Positions 17,939-64,000 of a DNA stretch of 64,000 nt are shown one piece after another (position 1 is the stretch's first letter; each line of letters starts with the position of its first letter). The DNA is from a phage: sequence record PZ445446.1, one strand, 5' to 3'. The translations under genes were made by a program, and so were the position numbers. The notes below the pieces were generated by a model that was given only the letters and a program-made list of their open reading frames with translations, ran no database searches and was not told the DNA's origin.

Positions 17939-17956
17939 TTTTTTAACTGAATTATC

Positions 17957-17981
17957 AAGGGGCTTAGGCCCCTTTCTTTTT
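17957..17981 (+). terminator. rho-independent terminator
   Basis: Hairpin aggggc-ttag-gcccct followed by ttcttttt. Confidence 0.6.
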
Positions 17982-18539
17982 GTCTGCTCTTCTCCTACCA
18001 TAAACGGCCCTACCTGGCAAGTGGAATAATTGACTAGCCATCAATCCCACATACTGTACAAATATACATGGAAAATAACTATTGCATAATTTTTCATTGT
18101 GTGGTAGCAAGTCCATTTTTACCCGTTTTCTCTCCCAAAAGTGCACGTAATGCCGCTATTGCACAAATTTTAACCTGATGCACATCTCCAATATCTTGTC
18201 AACAACTAAAAATCTTTATAAGTCATACACTTACACAGCATCGAAAGCGTGTTCTACGCGAAAAATCGAGTATAACTATAGCCGCCAGATCTCAGAATTC
18301 ACGTACGCACGCCATTCTATAGCCTGCAAAGTATTTATTCCAACCACAGAATAACGGAATAGTCAATACCTGCATAAAATAATTATTCGTGTAAACTGCA
18401 TAACATAAATCAGCTCAGGTGTCAACATTTTTCGTAAACAGTCCGAAATTATCACGATGAGCTATCATAAACAGAGAAATATTTAGTCGTCTAATGTTTA
18501 CTGTACATTACTATACTGACTGGAATCATTAGATGACTA

Positions 18540-19010
18540 AGAGAAAGATAAGAAATAATTAATAATGTAATTATTTTACCTGTAACAATAAGGCAACTAT
18601 GCAAACGAATGGCATGGCGCGACGGAGTCGCGACATAATATAAAAGCAGTAACCATCACCCCCGTGATAGTTTGTCTGCAAACTATTAATCAGATCATAG
18701 TTGCCTTGTATTTAGTTAATCATGACATAACAAGCAAGGCAACTATAGATCTTCTAATAGTTGCCCTGCTTTTATATTATGTCATAGGAACGCCCGAAGG
18801 GGTGACCTAGTCACCTGGTATAGCCAGCGAAAGATTATTAACTTGTCGATTGTTATCTTGTTAATTGTTTTCATGCAAACGAATGGCATGGCTTATCATC
18901 TATGCGTGAACAGTGAGGCATGCAATAGTAACAATTGTTATTGTATCCAGTGTGTTGAGTATGCCCAGTGTGTCACTATTATGTCATATTATGTCACAGT
19001 ATGTCAGACA
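18540..19010. repeat. iteron-like repeat cluster in non-coding convergence zone
   Basis: Direct and inverted copies of caaggcaactat / atagttgcc, two copies of atgcaaacgaatggcatggc (~18597 and ~18877), and a run of (t)atgtca(t/c/g) units at ~18975-19010. Confidence 0.5.
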
Positions 19011-20458
19011 AGTTTTCCTCCTCTTTGTCAAGTGCTGCATGAAAAATTTACAAGCTTGTATGGTAGCATTTTTGCGGCCCTGTTTACATTCAGTGTTGTA
19101 TGTATAATCCTTGTTGTGTGGGCGTTTAGACGTCTGGACGGTCAGAAGTTTGCAGGTCAATATCTAATCTATTGGCTGCTAACTATATCCCCCACAAATA
19201 ATAAGAAATATAATTGTTATGTGCGTAAACAGTAACCCATGTTATCAATCCCTGTATGTATCGCCAGTGGTGCGCATAATGGGTATTATGTTAAATTGCC
19301 CGTAATGATAACAGTTCTCACAATGATAGGTATTCTCATTCATCCACACAAAATAGGTTGCAAATGTTGTGCCACTGTGTGAACGGCCTGGCCTATTAAT
19401 TTCTCTCACTGCCTCGATATTTGAGAATTGTTATAAGAATGAGAAGTATTCCCATTCCGTCCGCCTGGCAGCACTCCAGTAGCTACCGGCTCCTGACAGG
19501 GCAGCACTCCTGTAGGTCAGGTCAAAATCGTGGTAGAATTGGGCCTGTTCAGATATTTCTGACTGACTCTTCAGATCTGTGTGGGAAAAGCCAACCTCTC
19601 CGGAGGGGCAGGGGAGGTCAATTAAAAAATTTACGTGGTGTATGAAGCGCTCTTCAGGTAAGGCATGTATTATGGGATGAAACCCTCTTCAGGCAATGAT
19701 ATTTGTGGGTGTGATATTTGCTGGAAAGCCAGATATGACGGGACTCCCGGCGGGGATGGGGTAGTACAGACAGGGAAAATATGGGGATGTAGTTGGGTAA
19801 ATTGATCAGACAGGTAGAGTATGGAATATGTTACAAGTATGTTAAATAGGGAGGATGAATATCTGCAGGATTTGTGTGTAAAATCAAAGACTTAAGTGGT
19901 GTTGTGGTATTTTCTATAAATAATTCAAGTTTAATAGGTAATATTTGTCTCTATCCACTTTGTGTGGTAAACAGATTCAGATGAAATTGGTTTACAAGTG
20001 TATACATAATATACAAATTAAAGATACAAGAAACCCCCCTCCCCCTTCGGCTACCATTCACCTTTTCCTCTGACTGGTACTTAAACACTTATTCAGACTC
20101 TTCAGGTTATCACCCATATATCATATGGCAGTGACTGGTGTCCTCCGGCCCCTCTTTCGTCACCCGTCCGCTTCGCCATGCTAATGCCATAGCCAATGGT
20201 TCGGTTGTTCACTCTGTTCACTCAGGTGTATCTCCATACCCCTTCAAACCGAAGAGAACAGAAAACCCGAATTACTCGGTAAAAGAAAAGAGAAGAACTT
20301 AATTTTATCAGGATAGGCAAGAATGTCAAGGCATGACTGCTCACTAAACAAGCAAACAGTCATGTGTGGAAGGTAAGTGATTGTGGTGGTGGGAAATTTA
20401 GTTGAAAGATGTGTTATAGGTGCGCTTCCAGCACTTTGGCCGGGCAGCTAATTGTGTG

Positions 20459-55247: not shown

Positions 55248-56009
55248 TTAAAGTTCCATAAAGTTTTCTACGGTCTCAATGAATGTTTTATCAGAGAAAG
55301 CATCAACCGCCCCGTTAAACCAAACTGGGATGCCGCGATCCTCATATTGGTAAATATCACTACGTGAAATACCATTCTCCCCTAGCTGCTGTGAGTCGTA
55401 TTTGTTAACGATCAGCAGTTTGGTTCCCTTATTGCAGGCAGGGAATAGCTCCCAGTTAAAATTGATAACTGTGTTGGAACACCCTACAAGGATAACCATA
55501 TCATTACTCGTAAGAGAAGTCAACAGGTCATACATGTCTGTATACTTCGGAGCTACTTCTCCGAAGAACACCACATTAGGTTTAACCCAGGTATACTTTC
55601 CTGCATCTACCTCAGAGTATCCAATGTCCTTAATGACGTCACTTCCTTCATCGTCCTCATAGACTATTTCTGGCAAATACCCGTGAACATGTAAAATATC
55701 TTCATGTTTTACACCAGCACGCTCCAGCAAATCATCTACATTGGTGGTAAGGTTGATCACACGACCAGACCAGCGGGAATACCACTCAGCGATCCGAAGA
55801 TGTGCAAGGTTAGGCTCAACACCGCCTAGAGCTACACGACGTGCATTGTAAAAGTCATGCACCTTGTAGTAGTTCTTGGCAAAGGTGTGGATGTTGCACA
55901 CCTCATCGATGCTGAAATTCTCCCACATTGCAGTGCTACCAGATCGGAAAGTGGGAATACCAGATTCAGCGCTCAAACCAGCACCGGAGATAATAATCAG
56001 TCGTCGCAT
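55248..56009 (-). CDS. Sir2-family NAD-dependent protein (sirtuin-like, no Zn module)
   Basis: 253 aa; GAGLSAESGIPTFR matches the sirtuin NAD-binding motif; HG catalytic dyad; no CxxC...CxxC zinc ribbon. Confidence 0.7.
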   Translation of the reverse strand: MRRLIIISGAGLSAESGIPTFRSGSTAMWENFSIDEVCNIHTFAKNYYKVHDFYNARRVALGGVEPNLAHLRIAEWYSRWSGRVINLTTNVDDLLERAGVKHEDILHVHGYLPEIVYEDDEGSDVIKDIGYSEVDAGKYTWVKPNVVFFGEVAPKYTDMYDLLTSLTSNDMVILVGCSNTVINFNWELFPACNKGTKLLIVNKYDSQQLGENGISRSDIYQYEDRGIPVWFNGAVDAFSDKTFIETVENFMEL

Positions 56010-56017
56010 AAGTGTCC

Positions 56018-56368
56018 TCAGTAGATGTTTTGTTTAATCTCTATTCCAAACTTTTTAAACGAGTCAGCTGCAAGCATGAATTTACGAGCCGCTGATGGGT
56101 TAGAAGTATGCACGAAAATCTTCACGTTGTCAACTACAGGGGGCTTACCAAATACAAATTTTTCCTCCAACATAGATAGGCAATCGTACCCTTCGAACAC
56201 CTCTCCAAGGTCGTTGTCCATGTGCCACTCAGAAACGCGTCTGTAGAGCTTTCCCCTATCGTTAATAAAATCTATAAACTCGGAGGAATTCTTTAGCCAA
56301 ATAGCGTCTGGGAGCCCATAATTTGACGGATCTCTCAAGTCATCCAGCCACACAATCAACTTCTTCAT
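56018..56368 (-). CDS. hypothetical protein
   Basis: 116 aa ORF between Sir2 and RNA ligase. Confidence 0.4.
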   Translation of the reverse strand: MKKLIVWLDDLRDPSNYGLPDAIWLKNSSEFIDFINDRGKLYRRVSEWHMDNDLGEVFEGYDCLSMLEEKFVFGKPPVVDNVKIFVHTSNPSAARKFMLAADSFKKFGIEIKQNIY

Positions 56369-57300
56369 TGCATATAGTTCTCGTTGTGGAAATAGTAATC
56401 AAGTATCTCACGGCGTTCCTGCTCCAGGAGGCAGTTCCACACATCTTCTGTGTAATTGTTACGAATGAAGTTTACCATGCCGTAAAACTCTTCGTCAACA
56501 CGTTTAAAGATATCATCATCCCAAATCCTCCAAGCTTTACCCCTCATTACGGCCTTCCGTGCCAGGTAGTATGGAGACTTGATCTTCAGCTGCAGGTCAT
56601 AAGGGTAGTAAGGCTTACGGATCATATACCCTTCGCCCCTTGTTTCTGCGGCTAATTCTTTTGCATAGCTGAACGGGATTTCACGCACAGTGTGAGGACG
56701 TTTTGCACCAAGGTATTTGGCAATCCCATCTAAAGCTGCTTCTGGTAGCATTATTCCAGAATCATTATATCTGCAACCTATCAAATATGCGCCATGGTCT
56801 TCTTGAACAATATGCGGATCTGAAGGGTGACAAATTTCAAACATGAATGTCATGTTTTCATTGCCCATAACCTTCTTGATAAGATCTAAATTACCACATT
56901 GCTCTTGGATGGTTTCCTTTGCAAGGTTACAATATGGAGAATCAAGAGACCCGGTTGTTGAGAACAATAGGTCACCTTTATGAGATGATACCACACCAAG
57001 GAATCCGTTCTTTTTCTCTACCGCAGTCACAAGCTTATTGTCAGGCAGGTTGGTGGAGTTTTCTCCCAAGTTAAACACTTTTGTGAAGGGCCATGCCACA
57101 ACATTTCCTTCATTACCTACAACAATGCCTCGGCACTCCAGTAAACGAGGGGACAAATGCCATAAATTGTTGTAAAATACTTTTCTAGCATATTTATAGA
57201 TCTTTAACCCGAGATCTGGGTAATACCTACTGGTTACAAGACCTTTGTCAACTAGGTCGTCTGCATTAAAATACTTCATCATACGTTCCTCATTTGTCAT
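56365..57300 (-). CDS. RNA ligase 1 (T4 RnlA-like)
   Basis: 311 aa; LECRGIVVGNEG, KVFNLGEN, AVEKKNGFL, FSTTGS align with T4 Rnl1 LECRGIMFEMDG, KFFNLNEN, LTKEDGSL, FKSKGS. Confidence 0.7.
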   Translation of the reverse strand: MTNEERMMKYFNADDLVDKGLVTSRYYPDLGLKIYKYARKVFYNNLWHLSPRLLECRGIVVGNEGNVVAWPFTKVFNLGENSTNLPDNKLVTAVEKKNGFLGVVSSHKGDLLFSTTGSLDSPYCNLAKETIQEQCGNLDLIKKVMGNENMTFMFEICHPSDPHIVQEDHGAYLIGCRYNDSGIMLPEAALDGIAKYLGAKRPHTVREIPFSYAKELAAETRGEGYMIRKPYYPYDLQLKIKSPYYLARKAVMRGKAWRIWDDDIFKRVDEEFYGMVNFIRNNYTEDVWNCLLEQERREILDYYFHNENYMQ

Positions 57301-57343
57301 TTTGTCAGTCTATCCTGCCACACAAATAACCTAGTGTCAACAC

Positions 57344-57808
57344 TTGAAATTAACAAAACAGTTAGGTATACTATCGTTGAAATTAAAACGGAGGGTCACT
57401 ATGTCTAAAATGCTATATATCGTGCGTGGTCTACCAGGGTCTGGCAAATCAACACTGGCAAATGCGCTATCTTTAGAGGGTCTGTATCCACATTTTGAGA
57501 ACGACATGTTCTGGTACGACGATGATGGAAATTACAACTGGGATGCAAGTAAAGTCACACTTGCAGCAAAATGGTGCAAAGATAACGTAGAAGATATGAT
57601 GCGTATGGGATACGACCGTATCGTGGTAAGTAATACGTTTACAAAAGAAAAATATGTGCAAAAATATATTGACATGGCAATCAGTTATGGGTATAGTTAT
57701 ACCGTAATCGTGGTTGAAAACCGCCACGGTAATAAAAGCATTCATGCTTCAGACGAGGTTGTGGATCGTATGGAACGCCAACTTAAAAACTGCATTAAAC
57801 TTAAATGA
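57344..57808 (+). CDS. P-loop polynucleotide kinase-like protein
   Basis: 154 aa; Walker A GLPGSGKST in a context like T4 Pnk N-terminus (GCPGSGKST); TTGAAA/TATACT promoter-like and ggaggg SD. Confidence 0.55.
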   Translation: MKLTKQLGILSLKLKRRVTMSKMLYIVRGLPGSGKSTLANALSLEGLYPHFENDMFWYDDDGNYNWDASKVTLAAKWCKDNVEDMMRMGYDRIVVSNTFTKEKYVQKYIDMAISYGYSYTVIVVENRHGNKSIHASDEVVDRMERQLKNCIKLK

Positions 57809-57815
57809 GGAATGT

Positions 57816-58370
57816 ATGAAATACTTTGTAACAAGCGACACACACTTTCTCCACCAGCGGGTCATGGAGTTCGATTCATGTCAAAAACACAGATCTCAGT
57901 ATGATCACAATCTTGACAGTATGAATGCGGGAATCATCGCCGAGTGGAACTCTGTTGTGTCACCTGCAGACACTGTGTTCCACTTGGGAGATATTGCGTG
58001 CACTAATGATAAGAATATCAACAACTTACTTCCAGATATTCTAAATATGTTGAACGGACATATTATTCTTGTTCGTGGCAACCATGACACAAGGACGACT
58101 GTCAGAATTATGAAAGAGTTCGGTCATGAGGTTGTAGATTATTACGAGCTTCGCCACAACAAGAATTTGATCTGTATGAGCCATTACCAATTTGCAAAGT
58201 GGAACAGAAAGCCTCACGGATCAGTCCAACTGTTCGGTCATGCTCACGGAACCACACAACAGTTGTTTGGCAGGCAGCTTGATGTCGGTTGGGATGTGTG
58301 GGGGAGACTCTTACCATTAGAAGAGGCATACCGTATTGCAATGAGTTTTGCTATTGACAGCGGGGAGTAA
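57816..58370 (+). CDS. metallophosphoesterase (calcineurin-like)
   Basis: Start at ATG 57816 (gagga SD) rather than track 57714; motifs SDTHF, GD, VRGNHD. Confidence 0.65.
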   Translation: MKYFVTSDTHFLHQRVMEFDSCQKHRSQYDHNLDSMNAGIIAEWNSVVSPADTVFHLGDIACTNDKNINNLLPDILNMLNGHIILVRGNHDTRTTVRIMKEFGHEVVDYYELRHNKNLICMSHYQFAKWNRKPHGSVQLFGHAHGTTQQLFGRQLDVGWDVWGRLLPLEEAYRIAMSFAIDSGE

Positions 58371-58417
58371 TCCCTGCTATTTTAAAGAAAATTGCCACAC
58401 AAGGAGAATCAGGAGAT

Positions 58418-58768
58418 ATGAAAGATGGGGATAAGCTGCTATATCTTAAAGTCCCCCTTGAAATACTGTCTATGTCAAAAGTTTTGAATGACACAACTGG
58501 AGAGGTTGTTGTTCTTGACTTGTATGACAAGATCGTATACTGCTACCTGCACAACTGGTATAAGCTTGGAGGAAATTCACGCTTCACACCCAGCACAAGG
58601 AAAATTGCAGCAGATGTTGGGATAAAGAAAACAAAAGCAGCAGCGTGCGTTAAAACTTTAGAGTGTGCAGGGGTGGTTGAAACATCCACACAAGGGAGAG
58701 GTAAAAGATGCACATTTTCCAAAGTTTTGCCACCAGAAGAAGTTATTCGGATGTCAACAACTGGTTAG
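58418..58768 (+). CDS. putative HTH DNA-binding protein
   Basis: 116 aa; HTH-like STRKIAADVGIKKTKAAACVKTLECAGVV; immediately upstream of palindromic iterons. Confidence 0.45.
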   Translation: MKDGDKLLYLKVPLEILSMSKVLNDTTGEVVVLDLYDKIVYCYLHNWYKLGGNSRFTPSTRKIAADVGIKKTKAAACVKTLECAGVVETSTQGRGKRCTFSKVLPPEEVIRMSTTG

Positions 58769-58840
58769 ACCAGTAAAAACTTAAATATCTGTACTATAAG
58801 GATTCGTATGTTTTATGTTCGCCATGGAACGGATACTATT

Positions 58841-58926
58841 AACTGTCCGTGATACGGACACTACTGTCCGTCACGCGGACACATCTGCCCGTAATACGGA
58901 CACTAACTGTCCGTGATACGGACACA
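58841..58926. repeat. four tandem palindromic ~21-bp operator/iteron-like sites
   Basis: aactgtccgtgatacggacac x2 (identical, first and fourth) plus two variants; each unit is an inverted repeat gtccg-N5-cggac; followed by ~120 bp AT-rich DNA. Confidence 0.65.
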
Positions 58927-59045
58927 TAAAGAATATAACTAAAATAACTAAATAATAAAAAATAAAAGATCTAGTACTTATGGTACTAAGTACATATACT
59001 TAACTTATGTAGAATATACTAGATCCTAAGTACCATGTTTTAAAT

Positions 59046-59330
59046 TTATTACTTACTATGGGCAGTGTCGGCCCTTCATTGGCACTCGCCTACGAGGGGC
59101 GAGATGCCGGGCCTCCTTGGTGGACACAATAACAGAAGTGCATACATGCAGGTCTGTTAACATGTGTGGGAGCGAAGCGATAGCGCAGGCCAAAGGCCGA
59201 GCACTGATGTGGACCACCGACGAAAGCTTGCCAGCGCCGTAAGGAGTCGGTTGAGAGTCTCCCGCGCGAGCTTGGATGAAGTTTATGTGTGGAAACTGAC
59301 AAGAAGGTCCCTAAATCGCTCCACAGCCAT
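59046..59330. other. GC-rich structured non-coding segment (candidate ncRNA or long structured leader)
   Basis: ~285 bp with local hairpins (e.g. ctcgcc-tacgagg-ggcgag), no credible ORF on either strand; the minus-strand 70 aa ORF looks like non-coding translation. Confidence 0.3.
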
Positions 59331-59428
59331 ATAAACTATACCAAGTAAGGCAATCGCACCAGTTTGATAGAAAAGCTCGTTACAAAGCGATACAGTGAGT
59401 TTTTCTATAACTTGAAGAGGAGGCAGCT

Positions 59429-60007
59429 ATGAGTCCACGCAAAGATGACCGTGAAAAGATTGCAAAACGTTATCAGAATGAAGAACAGATGGAGAAAACT
59501 TTCGAGTGGAAGCCAGGTTTCCAGCGTAATCATTCTAACGCTCGTGATCGTAAGCATCCGGATAAGTGGTTAACACCGCCAAATGATGGCATGCAGGTTG
59601 GGGATGAGAAGGAGCTGTCACCTGGAAAAGATGGCAACTACATTCGCACTAAGGAAGCAGGTCCAAAGGATGACAGCTATCTTGTAGATAAGGTTCTTGA
59701 TGGTATTGATGTAGATGTTGACACTGCACGAAACCTTTTTCTTGGTTGGTATCGTACAGGGTTTTTCGACATCAAGGCTATTCGTCGTGTTTGTGATATT
59801 AAAAAGTCTGCATATGATGATGACTCTCTACATCGCACTCTGAGACAATACTCAGAGAGATACGGTCATCCAGTTATCACTCTTGACGATATTAACGAAG
59901 TGATGTATCATGCAGAGGTTGTTGCAGGTAGATTCGGTGATGCATATCTCGGTATTCTTTCTGCAAAAGATGAGGTAATGTTAAATAAAATTTACTATGA
60001 ACGCTGA
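59429..60007 (+). CDS. hypothetical protein
   Basis: 192 aa ORF with gaggagg SD. Confidence 0.5.
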   Translation: MSPRKDDREKIAKRYQNEEQMEKTFEWKPGFQRNHSNARDRKHPDKWLTPPNDGMQVGDEKELSPGKDGNYIRTKEAGPKDDSYLVDKVLDGIDVDVDTARNLFLGWYRTGFFDIKAIRRVCDIKKSAYDDDSLHRTLRQYSERYGHPVITLDDINEVMYHAEVVAGRFGDAYLGILSAKDEVMLNKIYYER

Positions 60008-60529: not shown

Positions 60530-60860
60530 GTTTTCGTGTATCATGATGAATATCCAATTTAAAGATGAATTTGATGGCTTTATCTCTGGATGCTTTGAAA
60601 CAGGGTTCGGAGAAGACTGAGTTCCCCTTAGAGGGCTTGATAGTGCACCACACTTAAAATGGTAGGGGCAGCCAGCACATGACGATGTGACCCCAGCCAA
60701 CCTGTAACAAGGTCGAGCCGAAGCGCGGGTAATAGGCCTCTGGTAACCCACTTGTTGGGTCTTGCTGGCCCAGGACGCTGGACAAGTCGCAGGGAATACC
60801 ACCCTGCGGCGAACTTGACAATCAGTATTTGCTATGATAAAATCCACCTATCACGTGATA
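60530..60860. other. GC-rich structured non-coding segment (candidate ncRNA)
   Basis: ~330 bp lacking plausible ORFs; hairpins such as cgcaggg-aatacca-ccctgcg; overlapping minus-strand ORF has Ser/Pro/Arg-rich composition. Confidence 0.3.
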
Positions 60861-61306: not shown

Positions 61307-61381
61307 GCCCTGTTAGCTTAGTGGATAAAGCAGCGGCCTTCTAAGCCGTTGACACTGGTTCGAGTCCAGTACGGGGTGCCA
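61307..61381 (+). tRNA. tRNA-Arg (anticodon UCU)
   Basis: Hand-folded cloverleaf: acceptor gccctgt/acggggt (two G-U), D-arm gctt/aagc, anticodon loop cttctaa, T-loop ttcgagt, encoded CCA. Confidence 0.7.
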
Positions 61382-61385
61382 AATT

Positions 61386-61472
61386 GGGGAGTTATCCCGT
61401 AGAGGTAGCGGTGTAGACTGTAAATCTATTGTCATTGCGACTCGGGTGGTTCGACTCCACCACTCCCCACCA
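61386..61472 (+). tRNA. tRNA-Tyr (anticodon GUA), type II
   Basis: Acceptor ggggagt/actcccc, anticodon loop ctgtaaa, long variable arm, T-arm ggtgg-ttcgact-ccacc, CCA encoded; close to E. coli tRNA-Tyr. Confidence 0.75.
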
Positions 61473-61586
61473 AATTTATATTTTTAGATGCATAAATAAT
61501 ACAGATAATGGCATTGATATTTATCGTCGTTTATACTAGTCACTAACTGCTCGAAAATCAGTGTCATTATCAGTATAATTTATAAA

Positions 61587-61677
61587 GGAGGGTAGGGAGC
61601 AATGGTGCTCAAGCGGTCTTGAAAACCGTCCCGTTGAGGATGACTCGATGATGGTTCGATTCCATTACTCTCCGCCA
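61587..61677 (+). tRNA. tRNA-Ser (anticodon UGA), type II
   Basis: Acceptor ggagggt/actctcc, D-stem gagc/gctc, anticodon stem gcggt/accgt with loop cttgaaa, long variable arm, T-loop ttcgatt, CCA encoded. Confidence 0.7.
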
Positions 61678-61766
61678 CATTGTTGACCTTGTAATTAAGC
61701 GAAAGCCGGAAGCAGAACCGGATTATCAAATGTTACAGTCGTCATCGCCGACTAGCAACATGGTCA

Positions 61767-61863
61767 ACATACTGAGCTAGGTAAGCCCTTTGGCAAGGGC
61801 GAGGATTTTTAATCCTGAAAATAGACGAGGTAGTCGTTGAATACATAGGTGGTTCGATTCCAT
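61767..61863 (+). tRNA. atypical tRNA-like gene (UUU-like anticodon loop, ~30-nt extra region, no encoded CCA)
   Basis: Perfect 7-bp acceptor gctaggt/acctagc, normal D-arm (gccc-tttggcaa-gggc) and T-arm (ggtgg-ttcgatt-ccatc), anticodon-like loop tttttaa; ~30 nt between anticodon and T arms; 3' end is CCT. Confidence 0.4.
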
Positions 61864-61870
61864 CACCTAG

Positions 61871-61946
61871 CACCTTTTTGCTGATGTAGCACAATCGGTA
61901 GTGCAATTGATTTGTAATCAATAGGTTGTAGGTTCAAGTCCTGCCA
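61871..61946 (+). tRNA. tRNA-Thr (anticodon UGU)
   Basis: Acceptor gctgatg/catcagc, D-stem gcac/gtgc, anticodon stem attga/tcaat with loop tttgtaa, T-loop ttcaagt, CCA encoded. Confidence 0.75.
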
Positions 61947-61947
61947 T

Positions 61948-62022
61948 CAGCACCAAGGCCCTGTAGCTGGAAGGTTCAAGCAAGCGACTCATAATCGCCA
62001 GACGGTGGTTCAATTCCACCCA
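61948..62022 (+). tRNA. tRNA-Met (anticodon CAU; initiator/elongator/Ile-lysidine not resolved)
   Basis: Acceptor ggccctg/cagggcc, anticodon loop ctcataa, T-arm ggtgg-ttcaatt-ccacc, CCA encoded. Confidence 0.65.
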
Positions 62023-62033
62023 GGGCCACCAAA

Positions 62034-62110
62034 TAGTAAATACTCCGCGTAGCTCAGCTTGGTAGAGCGCCTGATTTGGGATCAGGAGGTCGAGTGTTCG
62101 AATCACTCCG
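62034..62110 (+). tRNA. tRNA-Pro (anticodon UGG)
   Basis: Acceptor ctccgcg/cgtggag, D-arm gctc-agcttggta-gagc, anticodon stem cctga/tcagg with loop tttggga, T-loop ttcgaat, CCA encoded. Confidence 0.75.
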
Positions 62111-62165
62111 TGGAGACCACTTTCAGTTATACTTTAAACATATATAAACAAAAGGAACCTTTAAA

Positions 62166-63223: not shown

Positions 63224-63648
63224 TGTCTAAGATTTACGGACCGTGTTCTGAAAAGCAGAAGATGATCCTCGAAAACGATGCAGATATTTTGGTAATCGGC
63301 GGTGCCGCAGGGTCTGGCAAGTCGTTCCTCTTGCAATTGATGCCACTTAAAATTATTGATGACCCCCACAGCTCTGTGGTTATGTTCCGAAGAACAACCC
63401 CGCAGTTGGAAGGTGAGGGTGGACTATGGCCTAAAGCGGTAGCTATTTATAGTGATCTGCCTGAAAACATTAAGCCAAAGTTCAGAGAGAAGGATCATAA
63501 GTTCATTTTTCCACGGTTTGATCCGAACACTGGCAAGTGGGATAGAAGCAAAAAGGGAGCTGTTGTAAAATACTGCCACATGGAGTATGTACAAGATAAG
63601 CTTAACCATCAAGGGCTTGAGTACACCATGGTTTGCTTCGATGAGGGT
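63223..63648 (+). CDS. terL: terminase large subunit, exon 1 (ATPase N-terminus, interrupted by intron)
   Basis: Walker A GGAAGSGKS and Walker B-like MVCFDEG; ORF stops after only 142 aa exactly where group I intron elements begin. Confidence 0.6.
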
Positions 63649-64000
63649 TAATTTGTAGCTCTCGTAAAACCTCCCTAATTGCGGGGAAATCTTTACTATT
63701 AATACCACCAACCTGTCATGGTAACATGATAGAGGCTTCGAAGAGAGATCGAAGGTATGGTAACAGTGTGTTAATTTAGATAATCCGCAGCGAAGCATCC
63801 GAGAGGATGAACGTTCAACGACTAGTCGAAAGACGTAGAATCAAGCGATTCGAAACGGGAGGATAAGCGGTTGTTGTCGCTTATAAGATATAGTCTGGTC
63901 TGCATGGAGACATGCAGCTGCCTGAAAATGGCGGGGCAAGACTAGCGACCTTGCCCGAACATAAACGACACAATTCGAATGGGAGCAGATAGACTATCTG
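63649..64000 (+). ncRNA. group I self-splicing intron (5' portion; continues beyond window)
   Basis: Core elements in canonical order: P-like aattgcggggaaa (~63677), Q-like aatccgcagcg (~63782), R-like gttcaacgactag (~63813), S-like aagatatagtc (~63885); exon ends in U; candidate IGS gctctc can pair with exon gagggu. Confidence 0.65.

Follow-up and report, generated by a model that had tools for sequence, protein, structure and literature searches.

The 64,000 nt stretch of phage DNA analysed here (sequence record PZ445446.1, below called the window) holds at 58770-59428 an intergenic region between two genes that are named gp075 and gp073 after phage rV5. In it four tandem palindromic repeats are followed by an AT-rich tract and by a GC-rich element. 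We suggest that gp075, the repeats and the AT-rich tract together form an origin of replication resembling oriλ, and judging from the sequence we put the probability of this at roughly 60%. The GC-rich element probably acts as a single-stranded nucleic acid coupled to initiation.

The window is assigned by its sequence to a Vequintavirus (rV5-like) phage of E. coli with a genome of about 137 kb. Region 58400-59450 shows 99.6% identity to Escherichia phage A51.2, which is the closest complete genome, and 90-99% identity to 118 Vequintavirus records. All genome-wide tests were made on the window together with the remaining 73 kb taken from A51.2. Phages of the rV5 type find wide application in phage therapy and biocontrol directed at E. 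coli O157 and further strains, and to our knowledge their replication origin has never been located. The locus offers a precise and testable candidate, with a putative initiator, four putative binding sites and a probable unwinding tract. In the literature we found no described origin, transcriptome or satellites of Vequintavirus; according to the rV5 genome paper, skew tracks transcription, and skew analysis did not succeed in defining an origin (PMC3606486).

The gp075 gene, the repeats and the AT-rich tract

Four tandem palindromic sites of about 21 bp, the first and the fourth identical, had been noted behind gp075 in a preliminary description of this DNA, and the repeat search confirmed them. 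The repeat unit is 22 nt long and the copies lie at 58840-58861, 58861-58882, 58882-58903 and 58904-58925, giving a spacing of 21, 21 and 22 bp. Every copy contains the dyad core TGTCCGT-N3/4-ACGGACA (58844-58860, 58865-58881, 58886-58902 and 58908-58924), and since the cores are about two helical turns apart all sites would face the same side of the DNA. The pattern TGTCCGTNNNNCGGACA with at most two mismatches gave 12 strand-hits in the window against 0.77 expected, and none of 100 shuffles reached 12. When at most one mismatch was allowed, the dyad motif was confined to the four repeat sites throughout the genome. Most Vequintavirus isolates carry four copies, A147 three and YN3 two. For an iteron-type origin one would look for at least three tandem helix-phased repeats, and here there are four of 21-22 bp.

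The AT-rich DNA behind the repeats, earlier given as about 120 bp, does have the lowest GC content of the genome, and its length is about 130 bp. Whether lengths of 80, 100 or 130 bp are compared, no part of the window is richer in AT than positions 58924-59055 with 17.5-19% GC, the next ones having 21-25%, and the minimum in the rest of A51.2 is at least 28%, above the value of the tract. On composition alone, as the lowest GC in ~137 kb, it corresponds to an AT-rich unwinding element. Two GATC sites lie in the tract, as do internal inverted repeats (58980-58990 with 59026-59036), and in eight Vequintavirus isolates its sequence is invariant except for the length of an A-run. Together with the GC block next to it, it makes up the two compositional extremes of the ~137 kb, side by side.

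The protein encoded just upstream, gp075, matches PHROG 12838 'replication initiation protein' with E=5e-80 and, more weakly, the N-terminal parts of the longer initiator families phrog_8102, 428 and 270. In Pfam it scores 27.4 bits for DUF6945 (PF22182, cut-off 28) and 24.5 bits for the helix-turn-helix (HTH) family HTH_36 (PF13730, cut-off 25); PF13730 is also listed in the precomputed Pfam entry of the 99%-identical cluster P0001. The search of PDB gave the hypothetical protein 4ro3 (E=3e-6) and, very weakly, RepA_N iteron-binding domains (E~0.8). An exhaustive HMMER search of 1.8 billion representative proteins returned only a handful of remote relatives, and the three that were scanned (P0008, P0009 and P0011) are O-like/DnaD-like phage initiators, P0008 matching phrog_270 with E=1.8e-27. 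No close relatives were found beyond Vequintavirus, to which both gp075 and gp073 are restricted. The Pfam and PHROG searches revealed no second domain that could recruit a helicase or a loader, the HTH spanning residues ~20-100 of 116 amino acids (aa). By these matches gp075 is a stand-alone initiator-type winged helix lacking a helicase-recruiting domain, and through its family matches and remote relatives it fills the place of the adjacent winged-helix initiator of an iteron-type origin.

A divergent rV5-like metagenomic genome (L021; IMG/VR UViG_3300010279_000001) has the locus in the equivalent place, between a phosphoesterase gene and a gp073 homologue. Its winged-helix protein of 143 aa shows 28% identity to gp075 and matches phrog_8102. 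The palindromic repeats of L021 differ, being of the type TGATACA-N4-TGTATCA, and start at the stop codon of its initiator-type gene; a different A-rich tract stands in place of the AT tract of the window, and the GC-rich element is the same. As the alignment reads, a joint exchange of protein and repeats has left the layout intact, which is expected of an initiator and its iterons. No comparable intergenic region was detected in Mydovirus KNP2 or Salmonella phage R7, both looked up via the phosphoesterase neighbour; the gene order there differs. The preliminary description had named iterons plus an AT-rich unwinding element as a classic origin layout, and this proposal gains support from the class of gp075, the uniqueness of the repeats, the extreme composition of the AT tract, the swap in L021 and the layout of the 13-kb plasmids treated below.

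In the mechanism we propose, gp075 would bind as dimers to the four dyad repeats just downstream of its own gene, and the resulting nucleoprotein complex would help to melt the adjacent 130-bp tract, predicted to be the least stable DNA in the genome. The T7-gp4-like primase/helicase of the phage might then load on the exposed single strand. We presume that it is the phage's own enzyme that loads because gp075 has no helicase-recruiting C-terminal domain.

The rV5 RefSeq record has a promoter, P76, annotated at the position equivalent to that of the sigma-70-like promoter upstream of gp075 (Table 1). Within 58770-59428 the promoter scan gave no sigma-70-like site on either strand, phage-specific promoters being outside its coverage, and the terminator scan gave no terminator-like site between the gp075 promoter and 59600. 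As the nearest promoter lies upstream of gp075, the intergenic region is probably transcribed by read-through, the transcript from 58354 passing through the whole of it.

This transcription bears on an alternative explanation, in which the repeats are an operator array and gp075 a regulator that acts as a roadblock or by autoregulation on read-through into gp073, the tRNA and the late genes. The GC-rich part would then be a regulatory RNA, either an intercistronic RNA for processing, stability or antitermination or a stand-alone non-coding RNA (ncRNA). The probable read-through from 58354, with no terminator following, agrees with it, as do the label 'putative transcriptional regulator' that gp075 bears in many records and its weak hidden Markov model matches, among which are CodY, LexA, TrmB and MarR-type HTH domains. 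The significant remote relatives of gp075 are, however, initiators and not regulators, the sigma-70 scan found no promoter-like site overlapping or following the repeats, and the extreme AT tract beside them would be left unexplained. Operators for the HTH protein had also been offered in the preliminary description as an alternative; lacking an overlapping promoter-like site they are the less likely choice, and we regard the regulatory explanation as a whole as unlikely.

The GC-rich element

Behind the AT-rich tract a GC-rich segment of about 285 bp free of open reading frames (ORFs) had been described. Its composition and non-coding character hold, with 59069-59268 being the most GC-rich 200 bp of window and genome (60%). 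Its limits do not: the conserved element spans ~59056 to ~59316 (~260 nt), and an extra conserved hairpin lies at 59367-59408. The + strand has a G skew of ~+0.2 in the structured segment.

Two ORFs were considered as genes and rejected. One is the 56-codon gp074, annotated in rV5 within the GC-rich part; in 15 distinct phage sequences its variable columns fall 10/15/9 on codon positions 1/2/3. The other is on the minus strand, and stop codons interrupt it in most relatives. From these comparisons we conclude that the element is non-coding.

The GC block is almost invariant among Vequintavirus isolates. Comparison of the window with L021 shows hairpin 1 and the 3' module of the element to be better kept than the intergenic DNA on their flanks, where replacement has taken place. 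The element is built of hairpins set apart by (A/T)TGTGTGG motifs. RNAalifold and pair counts gave 16 pairs for hairpin 1, with 100% of cells paired in five distinct sequences. Two of these pairs show compensatory double changes between the phages and L011 (one of the 13-kb plasmids), and one is a U-G pair in all sequences. In the 6-bp helix of the 3' module three pairs have double changes, and 98.6% of cells are paired against 26-49% with slid partners; U-G/G-U pairs occur here too, where the opposite strand would give A-C mismatches. Because of the compensatory changes and the wobble pairs we take the + strand to be the folding strand. The covariance model of the 3' module, named R1, scores 99.7 bits on the window, and it finds a single copy in each phage genome and in each monomer of the 13-kb plasmids. 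In hairpin 2 the mid-stem shows no covariation, and the 5' arm is deleted in rV5 and A147. The hairpin nearest gp073 has 12-nt arms with 92% complementarity; within Vequintavirus it does not vary, and L021 has it almost unchanged.

Single-strand initiation (ssi) or G4-type sites are marked by stable hairpins that one strand forms beside iterons and AT-rich DNA, and such an arrangement is found here. The element may thus be a structured priming or loading signal like the ssi sites of RSF1010 or the G-site of R1; alternatively, read-through from the gp075 promoter may yield a transcript of which the element is the structured part. An earlier suggestion was that the GC-rich part is a structured leader or ncRNA. 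That it is structured is borne out by the compensatory changes and by the lack of a coding signal, and both RNA and single-stranded DNA are compatible with this. The strand to which the wobble pairs point is the one that is probably transcribed, and this speaks for the RNA of the regulatory explanation. The covariance-model scan proposed in the preliminary description was run, and no Rfam family matched the GC-rich segment at the gathering threshold, nor was anything found in the 13-kb plasmids or in L021. The absence of a family even at a permissive threshold, at which rli43 came out best with 23 bits against a gathering score of 100, counts against a regulatory RNA.

Table 1. Features of the locus from the gp075 promoter to gp073, with positions in the window.
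Feature	Position	Strand	Basis
Sigma-70-like promoter, TTGACA-18-TATTTT with TG, upstream of gp075	58354..58383	+	promoter scan
gp075, 116-aa stand-alone winged-helix protein, putative repeat-binding initiator	58418..58768	+	PHROG, Pfam, remote relatives
Four tandem dyad-symmetric repeats ('iterons')	58840..58925	n/a	repeat search, unique in genome
AT-rich tract, candidate DNA-unwinding element	58925..59055	n/a	lowest GC in genome
Hairpin 1 of the GC-rich element, 16 pairs	59070..59113	+	RNAalifold and pair counts
Hairpin 2, 14-nt arms	59130..59159	+	inverted repeat I7
Central segment, beginning with ATGTGTGGG and holding GCGAAGC and a GGCC-AAA-GGCC mini-hairpin	59163..59206	+	sequence, alignment
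Conserved 3' module: ATGTGGACC, stem, GAAAGCTTGCCAGCGCCGKAAGGAG, other stem half, then AGAGTCTCCCGCGCG	59207..59281	+	covariance model R1
3' end of the shared element, ATGTGTGGAAAC ... CCCTAAAT	59282..59316	+	alignment
Conserved hairpin directly before the ribosome-binding site of the next gene	59367..59408	+	inverted repeat I8
gp073, 192 aa, function unknown, downstream module boundary	59429..60007	+	ORF list; PHROG 12226

Circular 13-kb elements that share the GC-rich element

In E. coli genomes and plasmids the BLAST matches to the GC-rich element were partial and came from just a few circular, non-mobilizable plasmids of ~13 kb, one further matching record being a 39.6-kb trimer. Beyond Vequintavirus the element was found in about eight such circular E. 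coli elements and nowhere else. The plasmid version, searched against phages, returned only the 118 Vequintavirus records. Sequence collections were scanned for patterns made of conserved 17-21-mers of the 3' module. In IMG/VR there was one true match, L021, the rest being chance matches in coding DNA; the GTDB genomes gave chance matches only (Collinsella and other genomes); the JGI metagenomes gave four rV5-like contigs and two contigs of 13-15 kb of the plasmid type, and no new lineage.

Besides an O-like/DnaD-like Rep of 288-306 aa, which matches phrog_270 with E=5e-12, the plasmids have genes for major capsid, tape measure and baseplate proteins. Neither a terminase nor an integrase is annotated in them. 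Two plasmid proteins share 45-50% identity with proteins from the tail region of A51.2, and for the tape measure protein the Vequintavirus homologue is the most complete match (25% identity). We consider the 13-kb elements as probably being plasmid-borne satellites of rV5-like phages, apparently undescribed, and call them satellites below. The family comprises L011 (NZ_CP020521.1), L013 (NZ_CP178698.1), L014 (NZ_CP035869.1), L105 (CP148565.1), L106 (CP134895.1), the trimer L012 (NZ_CP043822.1) and the metagenome contigs L076 and L084; its members are circular and 13.2-13.9 kb in size.

The satellites have a single long non-coding region of ~2.3 kb. It starts with arrays of palindromic repeats, of several types and ending in 4-5 tandem copies, and continues with a short spacer, an array of hairpins separated by TGTGTGGG, the conserved 3' module and the strong promoters of the Rep operon. 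The sequence CCCTAAAT is common to phages and satellites, and the palindromes of the phages are absent from the satellites. The hairpin modules vary between the satellites, with stems replaced in a compensatory manner, and a triple-hairpin module occurs in four versions. A clean correlation between Rep sequence and repeat type in the satellites was considered and rejected, as L011 and L012 share a repeat type and their Rep proteins differ.

Among the loops of the satellite hairpins, cUUCGg and cUACGg are of a kind typical of RNA, and cGAAg/GCGAAGC is known from DNA as a mini-hairpin of great stability. Pointing both ways, the loops do not settle whether RNA or DNA is the acting form. The RNA-typical loops, and an orientation of the element relative to the downstream operon that is the same in phages and satellites, speak for the regulatory explanation. 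Against it, strong sigma-70-type promoters lie downstream of the element in the satellites, so that the element is not a leader of their operon. For the element itself we hold a role at the transcript level and a signal to the replication machinery to be about equally possible. Its position beside repeat arrays of elements with their own Rep, and its restriction to a shared host and probably a shared replisome, fit a replication signal.

Apart from the phages the element is found only in the 13-kb elements, which bring a Rep and repeats of their own along with tail genes of the rV5 type. This distribution suggests that the satellites took over a signal that is read by helper or host machinery. 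Further, we speculate that the hairpin array represents a new class of folded single-strand signal, DNA or RNA, which acts in cis to recruit or prime the Vequintavirus replisome at the origin, and that unrecognised plasmid-borne satellites with capsid and tail genes have copied it beside their own Rep and repeats in order to hijack the replication of their virulent helper. We find this conceivable but doubtful. Through the structured element these virulent phages are linked to a few related 13-kb plasmids of E. coli. Were the link functional, it would show how a satellite taps the replication of a virulent helper or senses the helper, and the element would be a sequence handle for finding such satellites.

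The locus might also be a packaging signal, with gp075 as small terminase and the repeats as its pac site, or with the GC-rich element as the pac signal by which the helper terminase would package the satellites. The rV5 genome is circularly permuted, implying headful packaging, and as no terminase is annotated in the satellites they must carry a signal that the helper recognises. The GC-rich element is the strongest DNA similarity between satellites and phages, and the locus belongs to the transcription unit of the terminase large subunit gene, ~4 kb upstream of that gene. The element does not, however, adjoin the terminase gene, the satellites lack the phage palindromes, and gp075 matches initiator families and no small-terminase family. 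Moreover, the compensatory changes and + strand wobbles indicate a folded single strand, unlike known pac sites, and an extreme AT tract is no feature of pac. A packaging role thus appears very improbable to us.

The modular hairpins of the satellites have a counterpart elsewhere in the window. An ORF-poor region of ~2.5 kb, 17940-20450, lies at the point of convergent transcription and the GC-skew maximum, and is probably the 'non-coding' box on the genome map of the rV5 paper. Within it, 18462-18590 is the second most AT-rich stretch of the window. Its repeat families are AAGGCAACTAT (four inverted copies), TATTATGTCA (four copies) and a 20-mer (two copies), and it carries CCCCCACAAATA and TGTGTGGG motifs resembling those of the satellites. 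A terminus, a pac site and a second origin are all conceivable roles for the region. A triple mini-hairpin module, CCC-GAA-GGG, GTGAC..GTCAC and CTGG..CCAG, is present at 18790-18838 as well as in L011 (10880-10934) and L013 (8549-8603). In the satellites it lies inside ORFs, in L011 as an in-frame insert of ~17 codons in the Rep linker, which recalls palindromic elements that insert into genes.

Such modules raise the question whether the GC-rich segment could consist of selfish mobile palindromic modules that spread between Vequintavirus and the satellites, keep their stems for the sake of their own mobility and have no function for the phage. It is in keeping with this that the modules are shuffled among the satellites with TGTGTGGG motifs between them, that the four versions of the triple-hairpin module have fully different stems, that a related module is found once in the second phage non-coding region and inside satellite ORFs, the Rep linker of L011 included, and that hairpin 2 is dispensable. 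The sharing of the module between 17940-20450 and the satellites lends this idea some weight. Mobile modules would hardly account for a segment of which each genome has one copy, with position and orientation constant, nor for a hairpin 1 and a 3' module that are nearly invariant in Vequintavirus and better kept towards L021 than their flanks. We therefore judge a purely selfish origin of the segment to be quite improbable.

Weighing of the candidate origin, known systems and the surrounding genes

A number of observations weigh against the origin proposed here. The label of PHROG 12838 may stem from the database annotation of gp075 itself, the Pfam scores of gp075 are just under the curated cut-offs, and an AlphaFold2 model built from a 4-sequence alignment had a predicted local distance difference test (pLDDT) score of 40 and was unusable. 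No DnaA box (TTWTNCACA) was found in 58000-60000, the whole window having seven, and no sites for IHF were found at the locus. The locus lies 1.5 kb from the point of divergent transcription, at the cumulative GC-skew minimum of the window, and since skew follows the direction of transcription this minimum adds little to the case for an origin. As regards the folded element, hairpin 2 seems dispensable, its 5' arm missing in rV5 and A147, and the covariation comes from few independent lineages, essentially one split between phages and satellites plus L021. The fold z-scores are modest, -1.8 to -3.8, and alike on both strands with DNA parameters, too modest for thermodynamics to separate the strands or RNA from DNA. 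L011 and L012 have similar terminal repeats and very different Rep proteins, hence the pairing of repeats and Rep in the satellites is not simple. Finally, as 17940-20450 shares a hairpin module with the satellites, such modules are not exclusive to the locus at 58.9 kb, and a second or alternative origin may lie in that region.

The origin layout as such is of a known kind, and a concrete candidate for Vequintavirus is new. As in oriλ, four tandem sites with dyad symmetry are directly followed by an AT-rich tract, and as in λ O an N-terminal type winged-helix domain is encoded in cis, the relatives of gp075 being found in 'replication initiation O-like' PHROGs. Unlike oriλ, which lies inside the O gene, the sites here are downstream of the gp075 gene. 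While O recruits λ P and DnaB through a C-terminal domain, gp075 consists of the DNA-binding domain only and has no match to the Pfam O family, and the rV5-like phage brings its own primase/helicase.

In the IncQ plasmid RSF1010, oriV has iterons for RepC, a GC/AT-rich segment and the hairpins ssiA and ssiB, which are read by a replicon-specific or host primase; the G-site of R1 is comparable. The locus described here shows iterons, an AT-rich region and structured single-strand signals in the same order. The likeness lies in this order of parts; the array here is much longer (~260 nt), modular and on one strand. The transcription-dependent origins of T7 and T4 have a promoter, an AT-rich unwinding element and an R-loop primer. 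A T7-gp4-like primase/helicase and probable transcription through the AT tract into a G-rich structured segment are points in common with them, whereas those origins need no iteron-binding initiator and there is no promoter-like site in or next to the AT tract here.

For the 13-kb elements, comparable systems are the phage-inducible chromosomal island (PICI)-like element PLE, which has a RepA_N initiator and depends on ICP1, and the Rep-ori modules of PICIs and Staphylococcus aureus pathogenicity islands (SaPIs). All have their own initiator with repeats and depend on a helper. Unlike the 13-kb elements, whose relation to a helper is deduced from sequence alone, they are integrated in the chromosome and have no known structured non-coding element in common with the helper. 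What is new at the locus, besides the candidate itself, is an initiator-type protein reduced to its DNA-binding domain, together with the structured element, attached to the origin module, that belongs to no Rfam family and is shared with apparently undescribed satellites.

A set of RNA-repair-type genes lies directly upstream of the locus (55248-58370), on both sides of the point of divergent transcription; it encodes a Sir2-like protein, RNA ligase 1, a polynucleotide kinase-like P-loop protein and a metallophosphoesterase. Downstream, 60560-60800 is a second ORF-free GC-rich stretch, with 57.5% GC the third highest in the genome. It is situated just upstream of a strong sigma-70-like promoter, TTGACA...TAAAAT (~60816-60845), has a fold z-score of only -1.3 and gave no Rfam match. 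A cluster of seven tRNA genes follows at 61307-62119. It includes an unusually long tRNA-like gene (61776-61874) for which ARAGORN reports a 4-base anticodon ('???'); Rfam scores it at only 35.5 bits, and other records list it as tRNA-OTHER. Further downstream a group I intron was detected in the terminase large subunit gene (63639-63917; Rfam 84 bits), and 'Introns in terminase' have already been described for rV5 (PMC3606486).

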